From Candidatus Daviesbacteria bacterium (lineage in GTDB: Bacteria > Patescibacteriota > Microgenomatia > Daviesbacterales > UBA10151), in NCBI GenBank assembly GCA_016187035.1, contig JACPKL010000001.1:14607-78606 (forward strand): a stretch of DNA of 64,000 nucleotides, written 5' to 3'. The position numbers and the translations under genes are program-made. Below are positions 3,086-54,488 of the stretch, in pieces; the stretch's first letter is position 1; each line of letters opens with the position of its first letter. The notes beneath the pieces are model-generated. The model saw only the letters and a list, made by a program, of their open reading frames with translations. It ran no database searches and was not told the origin of the DNA.

Positions 3086-3122
3086 GTCATCGCGAGCGAT
3101 TAGCGTGGCGATCTTCTAGTGC
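3086..3122. repeat. Palindromic element family A, half copy
   Basis: GTCATCGCGAG-CGATTAGC-GTGGCGATCTTC. The left terminus plus core half is retained and the right half is absent. Confidence 0.65.
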
Positions 3123-3914
3123 CTTGATTATCTGTTCATGCACTACCCCATTTGAGGCTATAATATTTAACCTGTCTTTAGTCCAGTCTATTTCTTTACC
3201 CTCAAAATCAGTCACTTTCCCCCCTGCTTCCTCTATAATAACAGCCCCAGCTGCAAAATCCCAAATCCAGGCTTGATTTATCAAAGCATCCTGAATACCT
3301 TTACCAACTAAAACCATAGACATAGCAGCTGATCCAATTGAATAAACATGACCAACCTTATTAATTAGCGGTAAAATATACAGATTAGTTTTCAATGCTC
3401 TCTTTTCTAAATGCCCATAATCTAATATTACTCCCGCTCTATCTAGACTTGCCCTTTTACTGACAATTATTATCTTTTTGTTAACAAAAGCTCCTGATCC
3501 AACCTCAGCCCAGTATAAATCCTTACTTAACACATGATAAATCACTCCTAAAATTGGCTTATCCCCCTTAAGAAGACCAATTGAGACTGCAAAATAAGGC
3601 ATACCAATTGAGAAAGAAAAGGTACCATCCAATGGATCTATAACCCAGGTATAATCGCAGTTTCCTTGTATCCTTCCGCTCTCTTCTGCAATTATATTTG
3701 ACTCCGGAAAGTTTTGAGTAAGAATTTGAACAATTTTTTCTTCTGCTTGAAGGTCTGCCTGGGTAGTAAAATCGCTCTTATCATTATTCTTATAATTTAA
3801 TTTGTGTTCTTTGCCAAAATACTTAAATATGATTTCCCCAGCCTCCAAAGCAGCCTGTTTAGCAACTTTTAAATATTCATCTTTCATGGTGGAGCAATTG
3901 TACCACTTCTTCAT
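3087..3914 (-). CDS. suhB: Inositol monophosphatase family protein (SuhB-like)
   Basis: WVIDPLDGTFSF and WDFAAGAVIIEEAGG motifs. A more likely start is the ATG at 3887 (MKDEYLKVAK). The last ~11 codons (EDRHANRSR) and the stop codon lie in a half copy of palindromic element family A. Confidence 0.8.
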   Translation of the reverse strand: MKKWYNCSTMKDEYLKVAKQAALEAGEIIFKYFGKEHKLNYKNNDKSDFTTQADLQAEEKIVQILTQNFPESNIIAEESGRIQGNCDYTWVIDPLDGTFSFSIGMPYFAVSIGLLKGDKPILGVIYHVLSKDLYWAEVGSGAFVNKKIIIVSKRASLDRAGVILDYGHLEKRALKTNLYILPLINKVGHVYSIGSAAMSMVLVGKGIQDALINQAWIWDFAAGAVIIEEAGGKVTDFEGKEIDWTKDRLNIIASNGVVHEQIIKALEDRHANRSR

Positions 3915-4515
3915 CGCTTACACTCTCAAATTGATAATAAAATTGACCAACAGCCCGAAAATTCTGGGGTATATTTAAAGCTACCATTATATCAACTGCT
4001 TCTTTTATCTTCTCTGCAGTATCTTTGCTGATTACTGAAACAGCTAAAATTATTGTTCTAACCTGGTGCTTTTTTAGGTAATTTACAGCAGCCAAGGTTG
4101 TTGACCCTGTAGCAATTCCATCATCAGCAAGAATAACTGTTTTCCCTATCAGTTTAATTGGTTTCCTGCCCACTCTATAAACCTGTTCCCTTCTTTTTAC
4201 CTCTATTAATTCTTCTTCTATCTTTTCTCTTAAATCACCAATCTTAAATCTTAAATCTTTTAATAATTTTGTCTCCCATACAACCTCCCCGTCAGTATCC
4301 ACTGCTCCTAAAGCCAGTTCAGGCTGGTTAGGCGCTCCAATTTTTCTGGTTACAATAATATCCAAAGGCAGATTTAATTCTTTAGCTATTTCTGCTGCTA
4401 CCACTACCCCACCTCTGGGAATTCCTAACACTACTCCTCCCTGAAGCCCCCGAATTCCCCTAAGTCTCTTTGCAAGTAATATCCCGGCAGATCTCCGGTC
4501 TTTAAATAGCTTCAT
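3877..4515 (-). CDS. Phosphoribosyltransferase-family protein
   Basis: PRPP-binding motif VILADDGIATGSTTLAAV, plus GIPRGGVVVA. Contains a heptamer tract encoding DLRFKIGDLREK. Confidence 0.7.
   Translation of the reverse strand: MKLFKDRRSAGILLAKRLRGIRGLQGGVVLGIPRGGVVVAAEIAKELNLPLDIIVTRKIGAPNQPELALGAVDTDGEVVWETKLLKDLRFKIGDLREKIEEELIEVKRREQVYRVGRKPIKLIGKTVILADDGIATGSTTLAAVNYLKKHQVRTIILAVSVISKDTAEKIKEAVDIMVALNIPQNFRAVGQFYYQFESVSDEEVVQLLHHER
4229..4259. repeat. Heptamer tract CTTAAAT (in the PRTase gene)
   Basis: The 19-mer ATCTTAAATCTTAAATCTT is identical at 54283-54301 in the SucC-like gene. Both encode DLRFKI. Confidence 0.8.
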
Positions 4516-4641: not shown

Positions 4642-6021
4642 TTAATCAAATAACCCCAATTGCGGAATTTCATTCTTTTCCTCTTTTACAGATTCATCAT
4701 CAGACTGCCAAATTTTCACTACCCCATATACTCCATCATAACCAGGATCTATCACTAAATCACCGTCTCTGTCTTTTTTTACTCCTTCTGCAATTCTTTC
4801 TCCTGAGATTTTAGCTATTTCCTGAATGTCTACTTTGGTCAGAATCTTGATCTCACTACCTAAAGCAGTTGTTAGCTTTTTGTATTCATTTAAGACCTTC
4901 TGGGTTGTTGGAGCAGTATTAAAAGCCTCTGCTATTACCTGTAATAATGGTACTAACATTCTATATTCTGGCCTATCTAGGTTTTTGCTTTTAACCACCC
5001 CTTCTTCTTTAATTTCCCCTAACTCCTCTGCTCCTCTGTCTGCTAACTTCTCCACTCTTTCCATTACTCCTATTGTCAAACCTCTTTTGCAAACAGGACA
5101 GGTTGTTCCCTTAAGTTTTGAATCCTGCGGAGCATACTTAACATTACAATTTCTATGTCCTGTGTAGTGATACTTGCCTTCTTCAGGATAAAACTCAATT
5201 GTCCCAATCACTTTGTCATTGCGAGGGTCGCCGTGGCGACCCGTGGCAATCTCTTTTATTTCCAAGGAAGATTGCTTCGCTTTGCTCGCAATGACGGATA
5301 GTTGAGTAATAGCTCTCCATAAATTGTCATACGTAAACTCAGCCAGATCAAAAACTGTAGACTCCCTGCCTAGATTGGGTAAAGAATGAGCATCAGAAGA
5401 AGATAAAATTGATCTGTTGTCTAACTCTTTAATTCTCCAATTCATGGCCGGGGAAGAGCTTAAACCAGTTTCTATACCATAAACATATTCTGTTAAATCT
5501 TCAAAACACTCTTCCAAACTATCATAGCCGGATTCTGAACCAAATATGCCAAACCAGGGTGTCCAGGCATGCGCGCATACAAAAATAGCCTTGTCTGAAA
5601 CCTGCAAAGCTAAACTTAACAAATCTTTGGAAGATATTCCCACAATTGGTCTGCCGTCTGAGCCTAAATTAGCCCTTCTTGAAAGAAGTTCTTTTTGAAA
5701 CCTTTCTGCTGATGAGAAATCCGGTAAGTAAACTAAATTATGCACCCTTCTGCCCCTGCCTTTGTGAGAATAAATTGAAGCAATTTCTACAGTTAATAAA
5801 AATTTAACACTTGGATCTTTAGGATAAGTTAAAAAACCTGAGCCATCTTCTTTAAGCTGATTTTTAAGTTCTGTTAACCAAAGCGGATGCAGAAAATCTC
5901 CTGTACCTAATAAATCTATACCTTTCAGCTTACACCACTGCACCAAATTAGGAACATTCAGTTGTTGTGAACAAGCCCTGGAATACCTGGAATGAATATG
6001 CAAATCTGCAATATATGCCAT
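4642..6021 (-). CDS. Endonuclease Q-like PHP-domain nuclease with zinc finger
   Basis: MAYIADLHIHSRYSRA, GTGDFLHP, AHAWTPW, SSSDAHS, GKYHYTGHRNC..CPVCKRG and a C-terminal IDPGYDGVYG, collinear with archaeal EndoQ as I recall it. Carries an 81-bp in-frame palindromic element. Confidence 0.8.
   Translation of the reverse strand: MAYIADLHIHSRYSRACSQQLNVPNLVQWCKLKGIDLLGTGDFLHPLWLTELKNQLKEDGSGFLTYPKDPSVKFLLTVEIASIYSHKGRGRRVHNLVYLPDFSSAERFQKELLSRRANLGSDGRPIVGISSKDLLSLALQVSDKAIFVCAHAWTPWFGIFGSESGYDSLEECFEDLTEYVYGIETGLSSSPAMNWRIKELDNRSILSSSDAHSLPNLGRESTVFDLAEFTYDNLWRAITQLSVIASKAKQSSLEIKEIATGRHGDPRNDKVIGTIEFYPEEGKYHYTGHRNCNVKYAPQDSKLKGTTCPVCKRGLTIGVMERVEKLADRGAEELGEIKEEGVVKSKNLDRPEYRMLVPLLQVIAEAFNTAPTTQKVLNEYKKLTTALGSEIKILTKVDIQEIAKISGERIAEGVKKDRDGDLVIDPGYDGVYGVVKIWQSDDESVKEEKNEIPQLGLFD
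5215..5295. repeat. Palindromic element family A, 81 bp, in-frame in the EndoQ-like gene
   Basis: GTCATTGCGAG-GGTCGCCGTGGCGACCC-GTGGCAATCTC..GGAAGATTGC-TTCGCTTTG-CTCGCAATGAC. Translated as SVIASKAKQSSLEIKEIATGRHGDPRNDK. Confidence 0.9.
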
Positions 6022-6041: not shown

Positions 6042-7829
6042 TCACCTTTTAAACTGCTGATTATACATCTCAATCAATTCTTTAACAGTGGTGGCATCTT
6101 CCCCTCTCTTATCAGCTTCCCTGAATTTAATCAATCTGGGAAACCTTAAAGCATATCCTGGTTCACTATTTTCTTTACCAGCAGTGTGCAGGGGCGAACG
6201 GGTGATTTCATCTGCTAATACTTCAATTACTATTTTAGGTTCAACCCAAACACTTGGAACTATTAAAGAATTAACTCTGGTCGGTTTACTTTGAACTTTG
6301 AACTTTGAACTTTGAACTTGTATCTCTCTCCATTCTTCATCTGATAAACCTGTTCCTATTTTTGAAACAGTCACGAATTCATCTTTTAACTCATCATAAA
6401 CACCAACCAACAAAGCACCTGCTCCAAACTCCGCTCTTTTACCCTTGCCATAAATATAACCTAACATTACACAATCTATAGTATCTTGTAACTGCCCTGA
6501 GGAATGCCTTTTTAATTTCACCCAGTTAAAATTTCTGGCTCCGGCTGAATAAACCGAAGTCACTCTTTTAACCACTAACCCTTCAAGATTGGCAGTTAAT
6601 GCTTCTTGCAGTAACTCCTCCAAACGGTTAACCTCAATCACTATTTCACCTGGTTGAGGAATTAAAATACCGTTTTCTTTAATAGTATCTTTTAAAATCT
6701 CCATCCTCGCTTTTAAAGGTTTATTAATCAAAGATTTACCATCTTTATACATAATGTCAAAAACAAATGCTTTTAAAGGTAAGCTTTTAGCCATTTCCTC
6801 TACCTTGTACTTTCTTCTTCTTTTAGTAGTTTCCTGAAATGGTAAAAACTCATCTGAGGCAGGATTATAAGCTAACGCCTCGGCATCTAATATAATTGTT
6901 TGAGCCTGAACCTGATTGTAAACTGCCTCAATCAGTTCGGGAAACATATGAGTTGTCTCTTCTAAATTACGGGAGAAAATTCTAACTACTTTTCCATCCT
7001 TATGCAGCTGTGTTCTAAATCCATCAAATTTTTTCTGAACATGAGCTTCTCCTTCAAACTTTTCCAAAATAGTTTTAGCATCAGGCAATCTTTCTGCCAG
7101 CTGGGATCTGATGGGCCTGCCTACTTTGACATCCAGTTTTTGCACTCCTGCCAAACCCTTGGTCCATAAAGTCTCCCCAATCAACCCTAAATCAGATGTT
7201 TTATTGTATGCTTCTTCTAAACTTGATCTTTGCTTGCGATCTCCTAATTTTGCCAAAGCAAATGCATCTAAAATGGTCGGATCACCAATTCCTAACCTGG
7301 ATACTCCCAAAGGAATCCTGACCAAATGTTTGCCAGATACCCCATTAACCTGTTTTAATAAATCAGCCAGGGTGGAAACTTTTTTCTCTACAGTTCCCTC
7401 ACCTTGAGTTTGTGCTATACCTCTTAAAATCTCAAAGACTTCTTTAACTGTCATTCCGAGGTCCGATGAAATCGGACCGTGGGAATCTTTCTTAGTTAAG
7501 ATTGCCACGTCGTCCCGATTTAATCGGGACTCCTCGCAATGACGTTGGGCAACCAATCCTAAATCCCCTACTTTTCCATATTCTTTTAAAACCTCTTCCC
7601 TTTCCATCCCATAAGCCCTGGCAATAGCAGCAGCTATCAGCTTCTCACTCATACCAATTTCGATGGCTTCATAAAAAGGAGCTACCCTGCCCTGGATTAA
7701 ATAACTCACATGTCCAATCTCCCCAACATTCACTTTAGAAAAAAGCTCAGCCAAAATATCAATTAAAGAGAGTCTGGAGGATGTCTGTTCTAATTTTTCA
7801 AAATACTCAGCTAAGGTGGAAAAAGTCAT
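6042..7829 (-). CDS. lig: ATP-dependent DNA ligase (archaeal/eukaryotic type)
   Basis: Adenylation motif I KFDGFRTQLHK, EGLVVK, and an OB-fold C-terminus. Contains one family-A palindromic element and a heptamer tract, both in-frame. Confidence 0.9.
   Translation of the reverse strand: MTFSTLAEYFEKLEQTSSRLSLIDILAELFSKVNVGEIGHVSYLIQGRVAPFYEAIEIGMSEKLIAAAIARAYGMEREEVLKEYGKVGDLGLVAQRHCEESRLNRDDVAILTKKDSHGPISSDLGMTVKEVFEILRGIAQTQGEGTVEKKVSTLADLLKQVNGVSGKHLVRIPLGVSRLGIGDPTILDAFALAKLGDRKQRSSLEEAYNKTSDLGLIGETLWTKGLAGVQKLDVKVGRPIRSQLAERLPDAKTILEKFEGEAHVQKKFDGFRTQLHKDGKVVRIFSRNLEETTHMFPELIEAVYNQVQAQTIILDAEALAYNPASDEFLPFQETTKRRRKYKVEEMAKSLPLKAFVFDIMYKDGKSLINKPLKARMEILKDTIKENGILIPQPGEIVIEVNRLEELLQEALTANLEGLVVKRVTSVYSAGARNFNWVKLKRHSSGQLQDTIDCVMLGYIYGKGKRAEFGAGALLVGVYDELKDEFVTVSKIGTGLSDEEWREIQVQSSKFKVQSKPTRVNSLIVPSVWVEPKIVIEVLADEITRSPLHTAGKENSEPGYALRFPRLIKFREADKRGEDATTVKELIEMYNQQFKR
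6288..6320. repeat. Heptamer tract ACTTTGA x4.7 (in the ligase gene)
   Basis: ACTTTGAACTTTGAACTTTGAACTTTGAACTTG encodes VQSSKFKVQSK. Confidence 0.85.
7450..7543. repeat. Palindromic element family A, 94 bp, in-frame in the DNA ligase gene
   Basis: GTCATTCCGAG-GTCCGATGAAATCGGAC-CGTGGGAATCT..AGATTGCCACG-TCGTCCCGATTTAATCGGGAC-TCCTCGCAATGAC. Translated as RHCEESRLNRDDVAILTKKDSHGPISSDLGMT. Confidence 0.9.
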
Positions 7830-13100: not shown

Positions 13101-14194
13101 AGTAAATCCAAAAATTCATCAAATAGAAAACTAGCATCAAATGGGCCTGGACTTGCCTCAGGATGGAATTGAACAGCCAAGAATGGTTTTGTTTTATGCC
13201 TGATTCCTTCATTTGTACCGTCATTTAAATTAACAAACCATTCCTGCCAATCATTAGATAAAGATTTCATATCCACAGCAAAACCATGATTTTGAGAAGT
13301 GATAATGGCTTTTTTATTCTGCATATCTTGCACTGGCTGGTTTTGACCTCTGTGACCGAACTTCAATTTATAAGTATTGCCCCCTGCTGCTAAAGCCAGA
13401 ATTTGGCTGCCTAAACAAATACCAAATATTGGTATGTCTGTTTTCAGTAATTGTCTAGTTGTTTGGATGGTGGCTTTGGCTTGTTTTGGATCTCCTGGTC
13501 CTGGAGACACTGAGACTCCGTCAAAGTCCAATTTAGAATTTAAAGGATTAAAATCCCAAGGGACTTTGGTTATTTTTACGCCTCTTCTAACCAAACTTCT
13601 GATAATGTTCATCTTTACACCACAATCAACTAAGACTATATTTTTCTTACCACTGCCAAAAACTTCTACCTGATCTGTACTAACCTGTGGTAACACATTT
13701 CCTGCATTAGGATCATAATTTTGAATTTTGAATTTTGCTCTGCCGAAGGCAGTTTCGCTATGCGAAACATTTTGAATTTCTATCCTTCCCAGCATGACTC
13801 CATGCTCTCGCAGTTTCGTGGTTAATTGCCTGGTATCTATTCCCTGCAAAGCAGGTATTCCCTCTTCTTTAAGCCAAACATCTAGGTTCTTTTGACTTTC
13901 AAAGTGTGATGGATGATCAATATAATTTTGGACAATTAACCCTTTTACTTGAATTTTTTTTGATTCCCAAAACTCTGGATCTGGTACTCCATAATTTCCT
14001 ACCAGAGGATAGGTTAAAACCAGTATCTGTCCAAAATATGAAGGATCTGTCAAAGACTCAGGATAGCCTACCATACCAGTATTAAAAACCACCTCTCCTG
14101 AGGTACTCGAGAGTCCACTGGACTCTCTCCCCTCTGCCCCAAAAGATTGTCCTAAAAAAACTGTCCCATCGGACAGAATTAATTTTCCCTGCAT
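13097..14194 (-). CDS. carA: Carbamoyl-phosphate synthase small (glutaminase) subunit
   Basis: GEVVFNTGMVGYPESLTDPSY, with GATase triad context GICLGSQIL and VQFHPE. Start set at the ATG at 14194 (MQGKLILSDG). The track's longer ORF (to 14302) would overlap pyrB by 92 nt. Holds two in-frame repeat insertions. Confidence 0.9.
   Translation of the reverse strand: MQGKLILSDGTVFLGQSFGAEGRESSGLSSTSGEVVFNTGMVGYPESLTDPSYFGQILVLTYPLVGNYGVPDPEFWESKKIQVKGLIVQNYIDHPSHFESQKNLDVWLKEEGIPALQGIDTRQLTTKLREHGVMLGRIEIQNVSHSETAFGRAKFKIQNYDPNAGNVLPQVSTDQVEVFGSGKKNIVLVDCGVKMNIIRSLVRRGVKITKVPWDFNPLNSKLDFDGVSVSPGPGDPKQAKATIQTTRQLLKTDIPIFGICLGSQILALAAGGNTYKLKFGHRGQNQPVQDMQNKKAIITSQNHGFAVDMKSLSNDWQEWFVNLNDGTNEGIRHKTKPFLAVQFHPEASPGPFDASFLFDEFLDLL
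13718..13790. repeat. Composite insert in carA: heptamer tract (AATTTTG x3) plus two short hairpins plus a heptamer-like end
   Basis: AATTTTGAATTTTGAATTTTG-CTCTGCCGAAGGCAG-TTTCGCTATGCGAAA-CATTTTGAATTTC. Encodes IQNVSHSETAFGRAKFKIQNY in the inter-domain linker. Confidence 0.75.
14106..14133. repeat. Palindromic element family B core, in-frame in carA
   Basis: CTCGAGAGTCCACTGGACTCTCTCCCCT, a 28-mer identical to 40550-40577. Encodes GRESSGLSS. Confidence 0.85.
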
Positions 14195-23312: not shown

Positions 23313-24163
23313 AAGTATGTTCCCCTACCCCCTAAGGAGATCTTCTTGATTTGAGTCCCACACATTTTACATTTCTGTCTATTTCTGCCGTAACAATAAG
23401 CATAATCTAAATAATAACCTTTCTGCCCTTCGCTGTCTACAAAATTGGCTCTGGTAGAACCCCCAAACTTAATACCATCTTTTAAGGACTTGACTATACC
23501 ATAGTACAGCTTCTTAAATTGTTCGTCAGAAAGCTGAGAAACTAATGTTGCCGGATTAATCCCTGTATCAAAGCAGGCCTCATTAGCATAAATATTGCCT
23601 ATTCCTGAAACAACAGATTGATCCATAATAGCTGCTTTCACAGACTGAGATTTATGATTTAAGAGATTAGATTTAAGAATCTGCCAAGTGAAACTCTTTT
23701 CCAAAGGCTCTGGACCCAACTTTTCAAACAAACGATTTACGATTAACGATTTACGATTAACGATTTTTATCCAGCCGAATTTTCTTTGATCGTTAAAGTA
23801 AAGGTGTGATCCATCGCTAAAACTAAAAATAACCCTAGTATGCTTATTGGGCATATCCCCTGTCATATCTTCTGTTGGATGTCCTCCAATAAATTTGCTG
23901 TTACCATTAAAAACTAATTGTCCGCTCATCTTTAGGTGAAATAAAAGAGTCAAATTACCAGTTATATCTATGCCTAAAATCTTAGCTCTTCTCCATACTT
24001 TGAGTACTTTTCTACCCTGTAGATCCTGAGTGTAGTCGAAGGGTTGTCCTTTTTCATTTTGGAAAGATTTTGGGGAATTTATCTGGATTTTAGTTAATTT
24101 CAATCCTACAATTCTTTTCTCTAATCCAATTTTTATAATTTCTACTTCAGGTAATTCTGGCAT
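23291..24163 (-). CDS. mutM: Formamidopyrimidine-DNA glycosylase
   Basis: MPELPEVE N-terminus, LGPEPL, and a C-terminal zinc finger CKMCG..CPNCQ. Five heptamer units encode KIVNRKSLIVNR. Confidence 0.9.
   Translation of the reverse strand: MPELPEVEIIKIGLEKRIVGLKLTKIQINSPKSFQNEKGQPFDYTQDLQGRKVLKVWRRAKILGIDITGNLTLLFHLKMSGQLVFNGNSKFIGGHPTEDMTGDMPNKHTRVIFSFSDGSHLYFNDQRKFGWIKIVNRKSLIVNRLFEKLGPEPLEKSFTWQILKSNLLNHKSQSVKAAIMDQSVVSGIGNIYANEACFDTGINPATLVSQLSDEQFKKLYYGIVKSLKDGIKFGGSTRANFVDSEGQKGYYLDYAYCYGRNRQKCKMCGTQIKKISLGGRGTYFCPNCQR
23733..23767. repeat. Heptamer tract CGATTTA/CGATTAA x5 (in fpg)
   Basis: CGATTTACGATTAACGATTTACGATTAACGATTTT encodes KIVNRKSLIVNR. Confidence 0.85.
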
Positions 24164-28231: not shown

Positions 28232-28317
28232 GTCATTGCGAGGGATGTACCATACGGTACGTCCCGTGGCAATCTTCCTACTTGAGGTGGAAGATTCCTC
28301 ACTACGTTCGCAGTGAC
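28232..28317. repeat. Palindromic element family A, intergenic copy (86 bp)
   Basis: GTCATTGCGAG-GGATGTACCATACGGTACGTCCC-GTGGCAATCTTCC-tacttgaggt-GGAAGATTCCTCAC-..TTCGCAGTGAC. The right terminus is degenerate. Lies between fba and glpX. Confidence 0.85.
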
Positions 28318-33034: not shown

Positions 33035-34192
33035 TTAATACTCAGTCAAGTCCTCTAAATTTTTCTCCACCAATTCTAAAATTTCTTTTTTAAATCTAAC
33101 TTTTCCAAACTTCTCAGCGTTTTTGCGGCAGTCTTCGGTTTTGATACGATGATTCGTATCATCAAAGCGTTTAAGGACTTCTATTAAACTGTCCACAGAA
33201 ATTTGTCCTGGACAACCATATAATAATCCTGTTTTTCCATCTATGACTGTTTCTAAAAAGCCCCCGCTAAGCGGGGCTATGACCGGAGTTCCACAAACCT
33301 GGGCTTCTATTGAAGTAATCCCAAAATCCTCATCTTCTGAGGCCACAATTAAAGCCTGAGCATTAGACAGTAACTCTACTCTATCCTGATCAGATACCCA
33401 ACCCAGGAAAGTAGTTGGTAGTTGGTAGTTGGTAGCAAGCTTTTTTAGATTTTTTAATTCAGGACCAGATCCTGCTACTTTGAGTGGTAAACCTAATCTA
33501 CCACAAGCTTCTACCACTACCTCTACTCCCTTTCCCCTGACTAATCTACTCAGCACTAAATAATAAAATTTTGAATTTTGATTTGTATTTTTGATTTTTG
33601 AATTTTGAATTTTGAATTCTGCAAGATCCACTGGTGGGTAAATTACCACACTATCCCTTCTGTAAAATTTCTTGATCCGCTCTTGAACATTCTTAGAATT
33701 AGCAATTAAAATATCCGGTCTTTGGGAGGTCTCAAAATCATAAATTCTTAGAATATGATTAGCTAACTCCCCTAAAATTCTAGTAATAAAGTTTTTTTTA
33801 TAATTAAAAGAAGTCACATAACCATATAAAAACCTGGGCGGGGTATGAATGTAGCTTAAATGGAGCGTCTCGGGTTTAGTAATAACGGCTTTGGCAAAAT
33901 ATATGGCAGATGAAGAAATGACCAAATCATATTCAGATAAATCAAAACTTTCAAACATTAAACAAGCAAATACTCTGCAAGGAGACAACAGCTTATTGGC
34001 AAAAGGAAATTTTTGAAACCAGGAAGGCCTGATATCCCAATCCTTGAAACGCTTGCCATTCTCCCCCATTGCCTCCAAATTTACATAAGCAGTGTAGACA
34101 GGAGCATTAGGAAAGATTTCATGAAGGGCTTCTAAAACTCTTTCTGCTCCACCATATTCTCTTAAATAATCATGAGCTAATGCAACCTTCAT
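33035..34192 (-). CDS. Glycosyltransferase family 4 (GT-B fold)
   Basis: MKVALAHDYLREYGGAERV N-terminus and EDFGITSIEAQVCGTPVIA (EX7E region). Two in-frame heptamer tracts. Confidence 0.8.
   Translation of the reverse strand: MKVALAHDYLREYGGAERVLEALHEIFPNAPVYTAYVNLEAMGENGKRFKDWDIRPSWFQKFPFANKLLSPCRVFACLMFESFDLSEYDLVISSSAIYFAKAVITKPETLHLSYIHTPPRFLYGYVTSFNYKKNFITRILGELANHILRIYDFETSQRPDILIANSKNVQERIKKFYRRDSVVIYPPVDLAEFKIQNSKIKNTNQNSKFYYLVLSRLVRGKGVEVVVEACGRLGLPLKVAGSGPELKNLKKLATNYQLPTTFLGWVSDQDRVELLSNAQALIVASEDEDFGITSIEAQVCGTPVIAPLSGGFLETVIDGKTGLLYGCPGQISVDSLIEVLKRFDDTNHRIKTEDCRKNAEKFGKVRFKKEILELVEKNLEDLTEY
33411..33436. repeat. Heptamer tract GTAGTTG x3.7 (in GT4)
   Basis: GTAGTTGGTAGTTGGTAGTTGGTAGC encodes ATNYQLPTT. 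Confidence 0.85.
33567..33621. repeat. Heptamer tract AATTTTG/ATTTTTG, ~8 units (in GT4)
   Basis: AATTTTGAATTTTGATTTGTATTTTTGATTTTTGAATTTTGAATTTTGAATTCTG encodes FKIQNSKIKNTNQNSKF. The unit is the same as in the carA tract. Confidence 0.85.
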
Positions 34193-37022: not shown

Positions 37023-39347
37023 TTAATTTTCCTCCGGCTTCATTTCTCCCCAAGTTTTGCCTGCTTTTAAATCAACTACCACTGGTACTGATAATTCTAG
37101 AGCATTTTCCATTTTTTCTTTGACCATTTTAGCAATCTGGCGGACTTGTGGTGAGCCTGCCGAACCATCACATTCAAACAAAAGCTCATCATGAACTTGA
37201 AGAATTAACTTACAGTTATCAGTTTTCGGTTTTCTGTTTTCAGATATTGGTTTGCCGGTTTTCTGTTTACCAGATTGACTGATAACTGATGAACTTTCAT
37301 CCGACGACTGACCACTGAGAACCGATAACTCCTTATCAATTTCCACCATAGCCTTTTTAATCATGTCAGCTGAAGATCCCTGAATAGGATGATTAATTGC
37401 TGCTCTTTCTCCTTGAGATCTGATCATTCTATTTGAGGCTTTTAGCTCCGGCATATATCTTTTTCTACCCCAGATAGTCTCTACATAACCATTTTCATAC
37501 CCAAAAGCTAAAGTTTGCTCCATCCATTCCCGTACTTTAGGAAACTGCTCAAAATATTCCACTATGTATTGACGGGCTACTTCATATTCCACTCCTAGTT
37601 GCCTGCTTAAAGCATGTGGACCCTGGCCATAAAGAGTAGCAAAATTCATGGTTTTCCCAACATTTCTTTGCTCATAAGAAACCTTTCCCACAGGTACTTT
37701 AAAGATCTTTGCAGCAGTGGCGCTGTGGATATCCAAGCCTGCTAAAAAAGCCTGTTTTAATCCTGGATCATCTGCCAGATGAGCCATAATCCGAAGTTCT
37801 ATCTGAGAATAATCAGCTCCAAATAATACTTTTCCCTTGGGAGCAATAAAGGCTTTTCTGACCTCTCCTCCAAGTGTACCCCTGATTGGGATATTTTGAA
37901 GGTTGGGGTCCTGGGAAGAAACACGTCCTGTGGCAGCTCCTTCCACATTAAAAGTAGAATGTATTCTGCCGTCTTCCCCAACTGATTTTGGTAAAGCGTC
38001 AATATAGGTGGAAACTAACTTGAAAAGTTGGCGGTATTCCAACAAAAGGGGTACAGCAGGGTGAGCTATAGATAATTCTTTCAAAGTCTCCTCATTTGTT
38101 GACCTGCCGGTTTTGGTTTTTTTAAAAACAGGCAATTTTAACTCGTCAAAAAGCACTACCTGCAGTTGTTTTGGGCTGTTCAGATTAAACTGATGACCTA
38201 TTTTAGAGTAAATTTCTTTTTCAATATTAGTTAATTTAGCTTTTAAATCGGTCCCAAGCTTATTTAAAAACTTAAGATTTATTAATATTCCTGACTTGGA
38301 CATTTTTTCCAAAACCGGCTGGACTTGGAGATCTAAATCAGTAGTGTCATTGCGAGGAAGTTTACCCTGAGCCGATTCGGCCTGAGGGCTCACGGCCTCG
38401 AAGGCTTGTCGAAGGGTGGCAATCTTCCCACTTGAGGTGGAAGATTCCCACGGCCCTTCGGGCCTCGGAATGACAGGAAAAGGTAATCTGTTTATCAAGC
38501 TCTTAAATTCCAATTCTTCGAATAATTCTCTTACCTTATTAGCATCGTAATCATGTACTCTACAAGCTGCTAAATCTAGCTTGACAGGGGCATTTGTATC
38601 TAGAGTAGCTAATTTTTTACTCATCACAGCTGATTCTGCTCCCTCGGCCAGTAACTTTTGCATTCTTTCGGGTAAGGTCTTCAAATTTTTAGGCAAGTAG
38701 ATTTTCTCAATAGAACCGAATTGGTGAATCAATTTAGTGGCTGTTACATCTCCTATACCAGCTACCCCTGGAATGTTATCTGAAGCATCTCCTGCCAAAG
38801 CTTTGTAATCTATCATCTGAGGAGGCATAAAACCATATTTAGCTACAAACTCCTCTACTCCATAAAGGCCCACATCCTGTAAAGTTTTTTTTGGCATTAA
38901 TACTTTAATATTTTCATCAATCAGCTGCATAATATCCCTGTCACCCGTGACTATTATAACTTCTAATTTTTGAGCTTTGAGCTTTGAGCTTTGAGTTGCC
39001 AAAGCGCCTATTAAATCATCTGCCTCATAACCTGACAGCCTAAACTCAGGAATATTAAAAGCTTTCACTACCTGATAAACCCTATCATACTGGGAAGATA
39101 AACCATCATCAGCCGGTCCCCTGGTAGCTTTATACTGAGTGTAAGCTTGATGCCTGAATGTTGGCCCTTTTTCATCCCAGGCAATGGCTAAAAAATCAGG
39201 TTTTAATTCATTTAAAGTCCGAAGAAGCATTGAGGAAAAACCATATACAGCATTAATTAACTCACCATAAGATGTGGAAAAAGGAGGAGTGGCGTGATAA
39301 GCCCGATGAAGTAAAGCATTCCCATCAACCAAAACCAAATGTTTCAT
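37023..39347 (-). CDS. polA: DNA polymerase I: 5'-nuclease plus polymerase domains, no 3'-5' exonuclease domain
   Basis: N-terminal 5'-3' exonuclease (VLVDGNALLHRAYHA, GDRDIMQL, GVAGIGDVTATKLI). Pol A motifs DYSQIELRI, RNVGKTMNFATLYG and QVHDELLFE. The two domains are joined by a translated 129-bp palindromic element. A second ~40-aa heptamer-derived insert precedes QVHDE. Confidence 0.9.
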   Translation of the reverse strand: MKHLVLVDGNALLHRAYHATPPFSTSYGELINAVYGFSSMLLRTLNELKPDFLAIAWDEKGPTFRHQAYTQYKATRGPADDGLSSQYDRVYQVVKAFNIPEFRLSGYEADDLIGALATQSSKLKAQKLEVIIVTGDRDIMQLIDENIKVLMPKKTLQDVGLYGVEEFVAKYGFMPPQMIDYKALAGDASDNIPGVAGIGDVTATKLIHQFGSIEKIYLPKNLKTLPERMQKLLAEGAESAVMSKKLATLDTNAPVKLDLAACRVHDYDANKVRELFEELEFKSLINRLPFPVIPRPEGPWESSTSSGKIATLRQAFEAVSPQAESAQGKLPRNDTTDLDLQVQPVLEKMSKSGILINLKFLNKLGTDLKAKLTNIEKEIYSKIGHQFNLNSPKQLQVVLFDELKLPVFKKTKTGRSTNEETLKELSIAHPAVPLLLEYRQLFKLVSTYIDALPKSVGEDGRIHSTFNVEGAATGRVSSQDPNLQNIPIRGTLGGEVRKAFIAPKGKVLFGADYSQIELRIMAHLADDPGLKQAFLAGLDIHSATAAKIFKVPVGKVSYEQRNVGKTMNFATLYGQGPHALSRQLGVEYEVARQYIVEYFEQFPKVREWMEQTLAFGYENGYVETIWGRKRYMPELKASNRMIRSQGERAAINHPIQGSSADMIKKAMVEIDKELSVLSGQSSDESSSVISQSGKQKTGKPISENRKPKTDNCKLILQVHDELLFECDGSAGSPQVRQIAKMVKEKMENALELSVPVVVDLKAGKTWGEMKPEEN
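37212..37330. repeat. Degenerate heptamer array with inverted ends (CAGTTATCAG / CTGATAACTG) in polA
   Basis: CAGTTAT CAGTTTT CGGTTTT CTGTTTT CAGATAT TGGTTTG CCGGTTT TCTGTTT ACCAGAT TGACTGA TAACTGA ... encodes LSGQSSDESSSVISQSGKQKTGKPISENRKPKTDN just upstream of QVHDELLFE. Confidence 0.7.
38346..38474. repeat. Palindromic element family A, 129 bp, in-frame in polA
   Basis: GTCATTGCGAG..(extra GC-rich hairpins CCTGAGCCGATTCGGCCTGAGGGCTCACGGCCTCGAAGGC)..GTGGCAATCTTCCCACTTGAGGTGGAAGATTCCCAC-GGCCCTTCGGGCC-TCGGAATGAC. Translated as VIPRPEGPWESSTSSGKIATLRQAFEAVSPQAESAQGKLPRND. Confidence 0.9.
38971..38995. repeat. Heptamer tract TGAGCTT x3.5 (in polA)
   Basis: TGAGCTTTGAGCTTTGAGCTTTGAG encodes SKLKAQKLE. 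Confidence 0.85.
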
Positions 39348-53169: not shown

Positions 53170-53202
53170 ATGAATTCTTTACTCCTTTTTTTATCTTCGT
53201 AG

Positions 53203-53252
53203 ATTTAAGATGTAAGAATTAAGAATTAAGATCTTAAATCGTAAATCATAAA
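53203..53252. repeat. Intergenic heptamer tract with central palindrome TTAAGATCTTAA
   Basis: ATTTAAG ATGTAAG AATTAAG AATTAAG ATCTTAA ATCGTAA ATCATAA ATC. Confidence 0.7.
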
Positions 53253-54485
53253 TCACTTAACTCCATATGCTAACTCCACCATGATTTTTGCAGTTGAAGT
53301 CATTGGAGTCTCCCTGCCAAATATATGAAAATCAAACCCTTCCTTACGGCCTACTCTTTTTAGCTCCTCAAAAGCTTCCTGATCCCTTGGCCCGCCTCTT
53401 CTTATCACAATTGGGTAAGCAGGCTTTGGTTTAATTTCCCTAAGCCCTTCTACAAAGCCCATTAAAGTTTCATAAATATCAGTAAAATTGGCTGTGCCTC
53501 CCACAAACCAACAACCCTTAAGTCCTGGTTTTCCTAGAACAATTTTAGTTAATTTTTTCAATTTTTCTCTGGGAGGGTTGCCTGAGTGTTCAGTATAATT
53601 AGCCGCCCTTCCTCCAAAAGTTACTAAAGCATCCATGTTAACTATAGACCCTCCACCTCCTGCAGCAATGACTGCAATGTCTCCATCCCGAAGGTCCCAA
53701 TAAACAGAGCCTGCAGTACCTCTGTGATCTCCTTCATCTATTTTTCTGGCTTCAATTTCAGCCTCAGTTGGGGGTCTGCCAAACAAATTTCTTTGGGGAA
53801 ATTTAATTTCCCTTCTAAAGTCTGCATCATCGTCCAAGATAACTTTGGCATCTAAAGCATAGACTCTCTTGTCATTGCGAGGTCCGCCCTGGCGGACCGT
53901 GGCAATCTTTCCATTTGAGATGGAAGATTCCTCGCTTATGCTCGGAATGACAGAAGTGGTAGAAACTACCAAAGGATTTATTTCTGCCAGTTCTAAGTCA
54001 TATTTTGTGAATACCTCCCAAAGCTCTGTAATAGTATCTGTAAATTGGACATAATGTTCAACGATCGTTGAAGGTAACGTCATATTTAGAGGATCAACAG
54101 GAAAACTCTCTGCGCCTTTTTCCTCTACTCCTGTCCCACCTTTGCCAAAAGTTAACACAGGTCCTCTTGTTGCTGTGGAGTATGAGAAAGACAGATAATA
54201 CTCCTTACCAACATCAACCATTTGTTCAACTAAAACCTTCTCCACCTTCTCATTGTTAATTGTCTTTGAAAGTAATTCTTCAATCTTAAATCTTAAATCT
54301 TCCATCTTCTCTACCACCAAAATCCCCCCAGCTTGTGCTCTTTTTCCAGACAAAACTTGAGCTTTCAAAACCAAAGGAAGTTTTAAGGTTACTTCCTGAT
54401 CTGCAGATTCTAAGAGTTGTGACTGGGGAACATTAATCCCACAACTTTTAAAAAGTTGTTTGCCTTCAAATTCGAAGAGTTGCAT
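53253..54485 (-). CDS. Succinyl-CoA synthetase beta-subunit / ATP-citrate-lyase beta-like ATP-grasp protein
   Basis: N-terminal ATP-grasp (MQLFEFEGKQLFKSCGI). C-terminal ligase-CoA-like IAAGGGGSIVNMDALVTFGGRAANYTEHSGNP. Carries an 81-bp family-A element in-frame between the halves. Confidence 0.75.
   Translation of the reverse strand: MQLFEFEGKQLFKSCGINVPQSQLLESADQEVTLKLPLVLKAQVLSGKRAQAGGILVVEKMEDLRFKIEELLSKTINNEKVEKVLVEQMVDVGKEYYLSFSYSTATRGPVLTFGKGGTGVEEKGAESFPVDPLNMTLPSTIVEHYVQFTDTITELWEVFTKYDLELAEINPLVVSTTSVIPSISEESSISNGKIATVRQGGPRNDKRVYALDAKVILDDDADFRREIKFPQRNLFGRPPTEAEIEARKIDEGDHRGTAGSVYWDLRDGDIAVIAAGGGGSIVNMDALVTFGGRAANYTEHSGNPPREKLKKLTKIVLGKPGLKGCWFVGGTANFTDIYETLMGFVEGLREIKPKPAYPIVIRRGGPRDQEAFEELKRVGRKEGFDFHIFGRETPMTSTAKIMVELAYGVK
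53871..53951. repeat. Palindromic element family A, 81 bp, in-frame in the SucC-like gene
   Basis: GTCATTGCGAG-GTCCGCCCTGGCGGAC-CGTGGCAATCTTTCCATTTGAGATGGAAGATTCCTC-GCTTATG-CTCGGAATGAC. Translated as SVIPSISEESSISNGKIATVRQGGPRNDK. Confidence 0.9.
54285..54301. repeat. Heptamer tract CTTAAAT x2.4 (in the SucC-like gene)
   Basis: See 4229-4259. Confidence 0.8.
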
Positions 54486-54488
54486 AGC

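Follow-up and report, generated by a model that had tools for sequence, protein, structure and literature searches.

The stretch of DNA considered here, 64,000 nucleotides of contig JACPKL010000001.1 from a Candidatus Daviesbacteria bacterium (hereafter the window), encodes on its minus strand an ATP-dependent DNA ligase whose open reading frame (ORF) runs straight through a short nested-palindrome element, a member of a dispersed repeat family that we refer to as family A (Table 1). The ligase ORF is 100% identical to the NCBI entry 'ATP-dependent DNA ligase [Candidatus Daviesbacteria bacterium]' and comprises the Pfam domains PF04675, PF01068 and PF04679; it reads ...VAQ RHCEESRLNRDDVAILTKKDSHGPISSDLGMT VKEVFEILRGIA, where RHCEESRLNRDDVAILTKKDSHGPISSDLGMT corresponds to residues 96-127 (RHCEES...LGMT) and both edges of this block fall on codon boundaries. 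The element is kept as an open reading frame of 32 residues, and the peptides predicted from it, if translated, include DSHGPISSDLGMTVK and DDVAILTK. An earlier note on this DNA had described 94 bp between the outermost inverted-repeat bases, two hairpins flanking a core, and an ORF that stays open through the element inside the N-terminal DNA-binding domain; all of these features are present, and the ORF is intact.

Table 1. Position, strand and make-up of the ligase gene, of the family-A copies and heptamer arrays in the window, and of the elements filling the ligase slot in related genomes.
Feature	Coordinates	Strand	Description
ATP-dependent DNA ligase gene (host)	6042-7829	minus	595 aa, intact, conserved motifs kept
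Family-A nested-palindrome element	7450-7543	minus	94 bp tip to tip; sense orientation in ligase gene
Block of exactly 32 codons (cGT...ACa)	7449-7544	minus	96 nt; element plus flanking pyrimidine/purine pair
Terminal inverted repeats	7450-7461; 7532-7543	plus	GTCATTCCGAGG; inverted partner CCTCGCAATGAC; 12 nt each
5' terminal inverted repeat, coding orientation	7532-7543	minus	GTCATTGCGAGG, read xGT-CAT-TGC-GAG-G
3' terminal inverted repeat, coding orientation	7450-7461	minus	CCTCGGAATGAC, read C-CTC-GGA-ATG-ACa
Side hairpin 1	7512-7530	minus	plus-strand letters GTCCCGAT-tta-ATCGGGAC; 8-bp stem, 3-nt loop; in the variable GAG[..]GAC slot of the family
Side hairpin 2	7461-7477	minus	plus-strand letters GTCCGAT-gaa-ATCGGAC; 7-bp stem, 3-nt loop; in 3' arm
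Core inverted repeat	7478-7489; 7498-7509	plus	CGTGGGAATCTT / AAGATTGCCACG; 8-nt loop between
Conserved core, coding orientation	7478-7509	minus	CGTGGCAATCTT / AAGATTCCCACG
Copy in MJ0043_C-family gene (4642-6021, minus)	5215-5295	plus	81 bp; antisense; read VIAS...PRND; 28 codons more, net, than in empty orthologs
Copy in DNA polymerase I (Pol I; gene minus, window 37026-39347)	38346-38474	plus	129 bp; linker after 5'-3' exonuclease domain; read VIPRPE...LPRND
Copy in ORF 53253-54488 (minus)	53871-53951	plus	81 bp; read VIPSIS...GPRND; 28-aa gap here in four orthologs
Intergenic copy	28232-28317	plus	86 bp (2 mod 3); between ORFs ending 28220 and starting 28329; no long ORF spans it
Half copy	3086-3115	plus	at 3' end of ORF 3087-3914 (minus)
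Heptamer arrays in long ORFs	4228-4259; 6288-6319; 13717-13737; 23732-23766; 33411-33435; 33567-33618; 38969-38995; 54273-54301		
Ninth heptamer array, outside a long ORF	53201-53237		
Ligase slot, window (WIN)			94 bp; family A; c/GTCAT...ATGAC/a
Ligase slot, L001			67 bp; family A; c/GTCAT...ATGAC/a
Ligase slot, L004			55 bp; GTCATTCTGG... family; c/GTCAT...ATGAC/a
Ligase slot, L010			88 bp; GTCATTCTGG... family; c/GTCAT...ATGAC/a
Ligase slot, L011			58 bp; GTCATTCTGAAC... family; c/GTCAT...ATGAC/a

The relation of the element to its host gene is best seen by comparison with 80 related ligase loci drawn from genome contigs, in which the linker was measurable in 73 alleles. Element-free orthologs are typically some 577 residues long, against 595 in the window, and the modal linker, taken from GDLGxVA(Q/E) to xEVF, spans 45 nucleotides (nt) through the Val codon (35 of the 73 alleles), that is, 14 codons where the window has 32. 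Most element-free linkers are built of heptamers repeated in tandem, about 4.6 times over (e.g., the peptide LNSKFKIQNSKLTV), with a unit that varies by species (AATTCAA, AGTTCAA, AAGTCAA, AAGGGGA and others) while the architecture is kept, which suggests concerted evolution. The linker of the window measures 99 nt, of which 94 belong to the element and five (c plus agtt) do not, which makes a net gain of 54 nt (18 codons); of the 45 nt of host linker, some 40 are absent. The ligase copy stands in place of the ancestral 14-codon linker and is not a simple insertion. The earlier note had argued that preservation of the frame requires extra or missing host bases, through either a target duplication or a compensating indel; the host-side change is real (14 versus 32 codons), whereas neither proposed cause finds support, since no clear 2-5 bp repeat accompanies the family (see below) and what is missing is the ancestral linker almost in its entirety, not one or two bases.

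Aligning the gene to element-free orthologs, as the note had proposed, thus reveals the replacement of the linker and leaves the host junction short of nucleotide precision, the relatives being too distant. An empty allele suitable for comparison at the nucleotide level was sought and ruled out, none of the fetched loci being close enough: in protein, the ligase next in similarity to that of the window reaches about 72% identity, and no two of the 82 loci (window excluded) share more than about 80-82% of their nucleotides. The host sequences bordering the slot are GTTGCCCAA and ACAGTTAAAGAA. The host Arg (CGN) and Thr (ACA) codons at these borders overlap the outermost element bases, TTGACAGT of the host agreeing with ATGACAGT of the element, and a few bases of the junction could therefore be assigned to either side even in principle. 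In the alignment with the Sulfolobus ligase 2HIV the element falls where the alignment is gapped and where 2HIV has a loop of its own, and in a poor AlphaFold model (built on a 19-sequence alignment, with a mean predicted local distance difference test score, pLDDT, of 50.6) residues 105-123 score below 50 and form a coil between helices 90-106 and 128-140. The element occupies, in sense orientation, the hypervariable linker of the N-terminal DNA-binding domain, to judge from alignment variability a probable surface loop. A second insertion hot spot of the ligase lies directly after DGFRVQIH in the adenylation domain, at about window residue 276, where orthologs P0029, P0083 and P0107 carry repeat-derived segments of 40-48 residues (SLR...IATGP.DPRNDK; alignment columns 315-362).

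Five full copies and one half copy of the family are present in the window, and their conserved modules are identical. Once oriented and aligned, they share, in order, GTCATTGCGAGG, the slot with its changing content, CGTGGCAATCTT, a loop, AAGATTSC, a second hairpin that may be missing, and CTCGSAATGAC; of the six copies aligned, those of the ligase and Pol I alone have the second hairpin, and their right halves are identical except for it. The 12-nt terminal pattern, with up to two mismatches, has 15 matches in the window where 3.5 are expected, a count reached by none of 100 shuffles, and at five sites its exact matches form pairs. With respect to its host gene, the ligase copy is oriented opposite to the other three genic copies, from which it differs in strand and phase: the slot-bearing arm, GAG[hairpin]GAC-GTGGCAATCTT, comes 5' in the reading direction of the ligase and 3' in the other three, and the ligase copy reads (R)HCEES...LGMT where the others read VI(A/P)...PRND, a difference of phase that the earlier note had recognised. 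The half copy, when read on the minus strand, supplies the ending ..LEDRHANRSR and the TGA stop of the 275-residue ORF 3087-3914, the stop codon being embedded in the terminal repeat.

The tip-to-tip lengths of the four genic copies (81, 94, 129 and 81) are 0, 1, 0 and 0 mod 3, and no constant added to every copy can therefore turn them all into multiples of three; a uniform redefinition of the boundary that adds the flanking T/A pair was rejected, as it yields 96 nt for the ligase copy and 83, 131 and 83 nt for the others. The claim that the ligase copy, unlike the 81- and 129-bp copies, is not a multiple of three in length (94 is 1 mod 3) consequently holds, and we found no corrected boundary under which all copies become simple insertions of 3n, so that the host-side accounting must differ between sites. 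The two 81-bp copies each add 28 codons, or 81+3 nt, with respect to element-free orthologs. For the 129-bp copy the Pol I orthologs were considered as a source of an empty site and discarded, their linker being mostly filled by remnants of other repeats, which leaves no clean reference.

How a copy is read depends on the phase in which its ends are entered. The left end can be read GTC-ATT (VIA), G-TCA-TTG (SLR) or GT-CAT-TGC (HCE), and the right end AAT-GAC (ND), ATG-ACx (MT) or as the stop TGA; an HCE start with an MT end implies a length of 1 mod 3, and a VIA start with an ND end a length of 0 mod 3. This rule (VIA+0 to RND, SLR+1 to RND, HCE+1 to ..AM(T), and so on) is obeyed by all 17 genic copies that we collected. 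The lengths of 68 non-genic copies are spread over the three classes (27, 22 and 19 copies for 0, 1 and 2 mod 3, against 6, 9 and 2 of the 17 genic ones), a mean of 21.6% of their six frames is open, and the HCE frame combined with a length of 1 mod 3 is open in only 3 of the 68. Free length and few open frames outside genes mark the genic copies as a selected subset. We propose that the length of a copy varies freely, in steps that need not be multiples of three, through its hairpin modules, and that the frame would be kept by selection and not by a duplication of fixed length: survival in an essential gene would require a permissive loop, a stop-free phase, and a sum of element length and host change equal to 3n. 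The encoded peptide would then be a tolerated loop passenger rather than a functional module.

As single-stranded DNA the ligase element is predicted to fold into a four-way junction (-32.3 kcal/mol, z = -7.5), and none of 200 shuffles folds as well. So strong a fold might be taken to mean that the element acts only as an RNA or DNA structure, or is removed from the mRNA, its open frame being incidental, and it is true that removal of 7449-7544 would leave an in-frame AQ/VKEVF junction. We hold this to be scarcely credible, given that all element-bearing ligase alleles and each of the 17 genic copies are open and compatible with 3n, against some 22% of open frames in non-genic copies, that no match to an Rfam family, ribozyme or intron signature was found, and that the half copy at 3086 provides a stop codon that is used.

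Target-site duplications are not made by this family. Across 84 copies taken with their flanks, no direct repeat of 2-5 bp rose clearly above shuffled controls at any offset; the lone 2-mer flagged (12 observed, shuffle mean 5.2, maximum 11) reaches one base into the element ends. The flanks themselves are biased (position -1 is T in 51 copies and C in 22, position +1 is A in 61 and G in 19) and extend the inverted repeat by one pair; those of the ligase copy are C and A in coding orientation (T and G on the plus strand), which are no duplicate of each other. These data bear directly on the notion of a classical cut-and-paste MITE (miniature inverted-repeat transposable element), where the flanking bases would be a 2-bp target-site duplication and the frame would follow from 94 + 2 = 96, exactly 32 codons; with the T/A flank counted in, the termini also look like TG...CA ends. 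Such an origin is very improbable: the ligase flanks form no direct repeat, the 84 copies show no clear 2-5 bp duplication, the 81-bp copies add 84 nt and not 83, and the host linker is missing instead of lying intact around the element. Missing duplications, hairpin modules and short junction homologies point, we infer, away from classical DDE transposition. Insertion would have followed a duplication-free route, the candidates being a recombinase directed by single-strand hairpins and, at short GTCA/TGAC homologies, template switching or recombination.

The explanation that we favor, and consider likely as a whole, is that the 94-bp segment of the ligase gene is a non-autonomous, MITE-like nested-palindrome repeat with a variable hairpin slot, which took the place of the ligase linker by duplication-free insertion, its frame being kept by selection and its peptide carried as a passenger. 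Several points weigh against it. The choice between replacement and insertion followed by deletion is inferred from orthologs about 72% identical in protein; the exposure of the loop is deduced mainly from alignment variability, since the structure model is of low quality; translation of the element is deduced from its open frame and 3n compatibility; and the 81+3 nt of both 81-bp copies fit no boundary rule that also fits the ligase copy. In addition, no transposase was found between matching ends in 2.3 Mb of fetched loci, and no transposase or recombinase is linked to the family. Four candidate intervals for an autonomous partner, with ends 0.5-4 kb apart, were discarded as ordinary-looking genes or ORFs devoid of transposase features, and within the window the matches to the end pattern are short repeat copies and a few isolated weak ones, never paired around a gene. 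A separate observation is that at L203 5565-6812 (IMGVR_UViG_2847339297_000002) two near-perfect inverted family-A arms flank 1.15 kb with a single 373-residue ORF, implying that arms of the family can bracket cargo; a Pfam scan of this ORF and of one of the candidate intervals returned no domain in either.

The ligase slot is not reserved for family A, for in related species it holds at least three other palindromic families (Table 1). Those other families also occur in the Pol I linkers of other genomes, which identifies them as true dispersed repeats. With junctions read xGT-CAT and ATG-ACx, simple arithmetic dictates that an element in this slot must be 1 mod 3 in length, and the elements of the window, L001, L004, L010 and L011 all are. 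The slot of the MJ0043_C-family gene, which lies beside the ligase gene, behaves similarly: empty alleles read AIKNQ/KIAGT, filled ones in related species hold elements of five different families, and right-half remnants start at AAGATTGCC, coinciding with the host KIA codons. In L010, L004 and L057 this gene carries the right half of an element alone, beginning AAGATTGCCACG, whose first nine nucleotides coincide with the codons AAG ATT GCC (KIA) that the host has in empty alleles, as though recombination had taken place at a short homology or a deletion had reached down to it. The ligase linker of L049 (cag ATGACCATT tGTCATTCTGG...) has an extra ATGAC-CATT motif immediately upstream of its resident element, which resembles joined element ends and could be the footprint of an earlier occupant.

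Identical junctions in at least three subfamilies, together with the parallel pattern of the MJ0043_C-family gene (where filled alleles share a P(S/T/M) flank and right-half remnants occur), may alternatively be read as the outcome of a single ancient insertion into the ligase slot followed by cassette-like turnover, dispersed subfamilies replacing the resident through gene conversion or recombination at their GTCAT/ATGAC ends, so that the inherited slot accepts only lengths of 1 mod 3 and calls for no new host adjustment. The ligase phylogeny, star-like and with 72-76% identity to all neighbours, is compatible with such a history. In a single-gene neighbour-joining tree, weakly resolved as it is, the filled alleles are nevertheless scattered among alleles with heptamer arrays (the window with L003 and L005, L001 with L015, L004 with L007), which favors several independent events, and turnover would also need repeated precise replacement by an unspecified mechanism. 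We therefore regard a single ancient insertion with turnover as unlikely, and retain linker replacement under selection for frame as the reading to be preferred.

Heptamer arrays deserve comment in their own right. Period-7 arrays were identified with Tandem Repeats Finder, and eight of the nine in the window are genic; they are perfect or near-perfect, contain about 3-7.6 units, are often about 32 nt long, and are read as SSKFKVQS, KDLRFKIGDLR, EDLRFKIEEL and the like, though seven is not a multiple of three. Such arrays also occur in the ligase linkers of the loci L003-L082. At the ligase slot, elements and arrays may coexist: L043 and L035 have an element of the GTCATCCTGAGCG... family inside a partly retained array, and L019 and L065 have small GC hairpins within theirs. 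The loss of host sequence at the slot is a multiple of seven in L043 and L035 (14 nt each) and in L049 (28 nt), but amounts to 40 and 36 nt elsewhere. Speculatively, as seven is 1 mod 3, arrays might offset insertions that are not multiples of three by gaining or losing units. In Pol I the linker that follows the 5'-3' exonuclease domain ranges from about 9 to 60 residues among orthologs P0121-P0240 and consists mostly of what is left of several palindromic families. The ortholog P0221 (1153 residues) also has precomputed Pfam hits to PF14528 and PF14890, presumably LAGLIDADG and intein-splicing domains. One might go as far as to suppose that the interdomain linkers of essential Daviesbacteria genes (ligase, Pol I, MJ0043_C-family) are dedicated exchange slots, in which heptamer arrays and GTCAT...ATGAC families swap at fixed junctions in a duplication-free manner directed by structure or microhomology, the arrays serving as fast frame adjusters for elements that are not 3n; we put this forward as a speculation and think it unlikely.

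Beyond the window, the family has the consensus ends (T)GTCATTSCGAGG ... CCTCGSAATGAC(A), whose 12-nt stretches GTCATTSCGAGG and CCTCGSAATGAC are present in all copies, a core of GTGGCAATCTT/AAGATTSC, and a slot with variable GC-rich hairpins. An exact-pattern scan of public metagenomes recovered at least 120 stretches, their sources including groundwater, gut and marine samples, on host contigs of 31% to 64% GC, and IMG/VR contigs contributed 21 more. The commonest form, of 82-87 bp, is GTCATTGCGAGGAG-CGAAGC-GACGTGGCAATCTT-loop-GAGATTGCTTCGCTTCGCTCGCAATGAC; sizes lie mostly between 55 and 130 bp, with a few candidate pairs of up to about 300 bp. A strict superfamily census of the 80 ligase loci, demanding that 11 of 12 end bases be complementary, yielded ten copies, too few for use. 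The GAG[..]GAC slot is filled with a GCGAAGC mini-hairpin or with longer hairpins rich in GC. A stem of 4 bp or more was found in 49 of 132 slots as compared with 11 of 132 after shuffling, and few stems in that distribution match the 8 bp of the ligase copy, which lies at its upper end. The hairpin CCGAT-loop-ATCGG (compare window 7512-7530) has 23 plus-strand matches in many loci, including L024, L053 and L043, where it lies within other repeat families or forms a stand-alone insert of the ligase linker (e.g., GGATCCCCGATTAAATCGGGGATGAC in L024); it may be a separately mobile or exchangeable module.

Several known systems offer points of comparison. Classical bacterial MITEs, such as Correia/NEMIS of Neisseria and ERIC, have terminal inverted repeats, are shorter than 300 bp and are flanked by a target-site duplication. 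The Daviesbacteria family resembles them in its terminal inverted repeats, its length below 300 bp, its many dispersed copies devoid of coding capacity of their own and its occasional in-frame intragenic fusions (PMC10969869), and differs from them in making no duplication, in being a nested palindrome throughout, and in having no partner insertion sequence (IS) with the same ends in the 2.3 Mb searched. A closer likeness is to the Rickettsia palindromic elements (RPEs), which are found in frame in many housekeeping genes (PMC10969869, summarising Ogata et al. 2000 Science 290:347). Both are short palindromic repeats (RPEs measure about 100-150 bp) of several families, lie in frame in unrelated housekeeping genes of a reduced-genome bacterium, are read through as extra peptide segments and have no associated transposase known; in our family four genic copies in the window, and 17 overall, are open in the frame of the host. 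The comparison is one of analogy only, as the host belongs to the Patescibacteria and the sequence family is apparently unrelated; the Daviesbacteria family is, moreover, abundant outside genes as well, in many habitats and GC contents, is used in either orientation and in each of the three phases, carries a slot for exchangeable hairpin modules, and shares its linker slots with different families in different species.

Repetitive extragenic palindromic (REP) elements are extragenic, carry a GTAG head and are mobilised by RAYT transposases. With these, with REPINs and with IS200/IS605-derived elements the family has in common that it is hairpin-rich and duplication-free, forms a doublet of inverted halves each with a small hairpin, and is plausibly handled as single-stranded DNA. 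It departs from REPs and REPINs in its GTCATT ends, which lack the GTAG head, in the location of four of its six window copies inside genes (a fifth, the half copy, forming the 3' end of one), and in that its conserved parts are the flanks while the hairpins vary freely. IS200/IS605-derived palindrome-associated elements have subterminal hairpins, lack terminal inverted repeats and duplications, and insert 3' of a fixed tetra- or pentanucleotide; the family shares the hairpins and the lack of duplication, but has clear terminal inverted repeats and a 5' flank preference restricted to T/C at -1. No Y1 transposase was identified, the ORFs of the window not having been scanned against a domain library. 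The palindromes of Nematomorpha mitochondrial genes are, to our knowledge, not known as a dispersed multi-copy family with conserved termini. They are reported to be coding palindromes, long and perfect inverted repeats embedded in, and translated within, protein-coding genes, and the likeness lies in this (PMC6649704). In Rfam 15 no family matches the element at gathering or permissive thresholds (best 16.9 bits against a threshold of 94), three tRNAs alone passing in the window, and our literature searches found no paper on the repeat, its end sequences occurring only as unrelated primers or genes, and none linking MITEs with Patescibacteria or palindromes with Daviesbacteria. In its manner of working the ligase copy resembles Rickettsia palindromic elements or MITEs; it lacks the duplication expected of the latter, and is no REP or REPIN.

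Selfish palindromes that settle in frame in essential genes, hitherto a curiosity of Rickettsia, thus appear to occur in bacteria of the candidate phyla radiation too, and the family concerned is spread over many environments. Their presence accounts for much of the length variation and the odd low-complexity peptides (RHCEES.., ..PRND, ..LAMT) seen in annotated proteins of these genomes, and annotators and structure predictors should treat such segments as repeat-derived loops. The combination of slot reuse with the lack of target-site duplication provides, in turn, a handle for finding the enzyme that mobilises these repeats.

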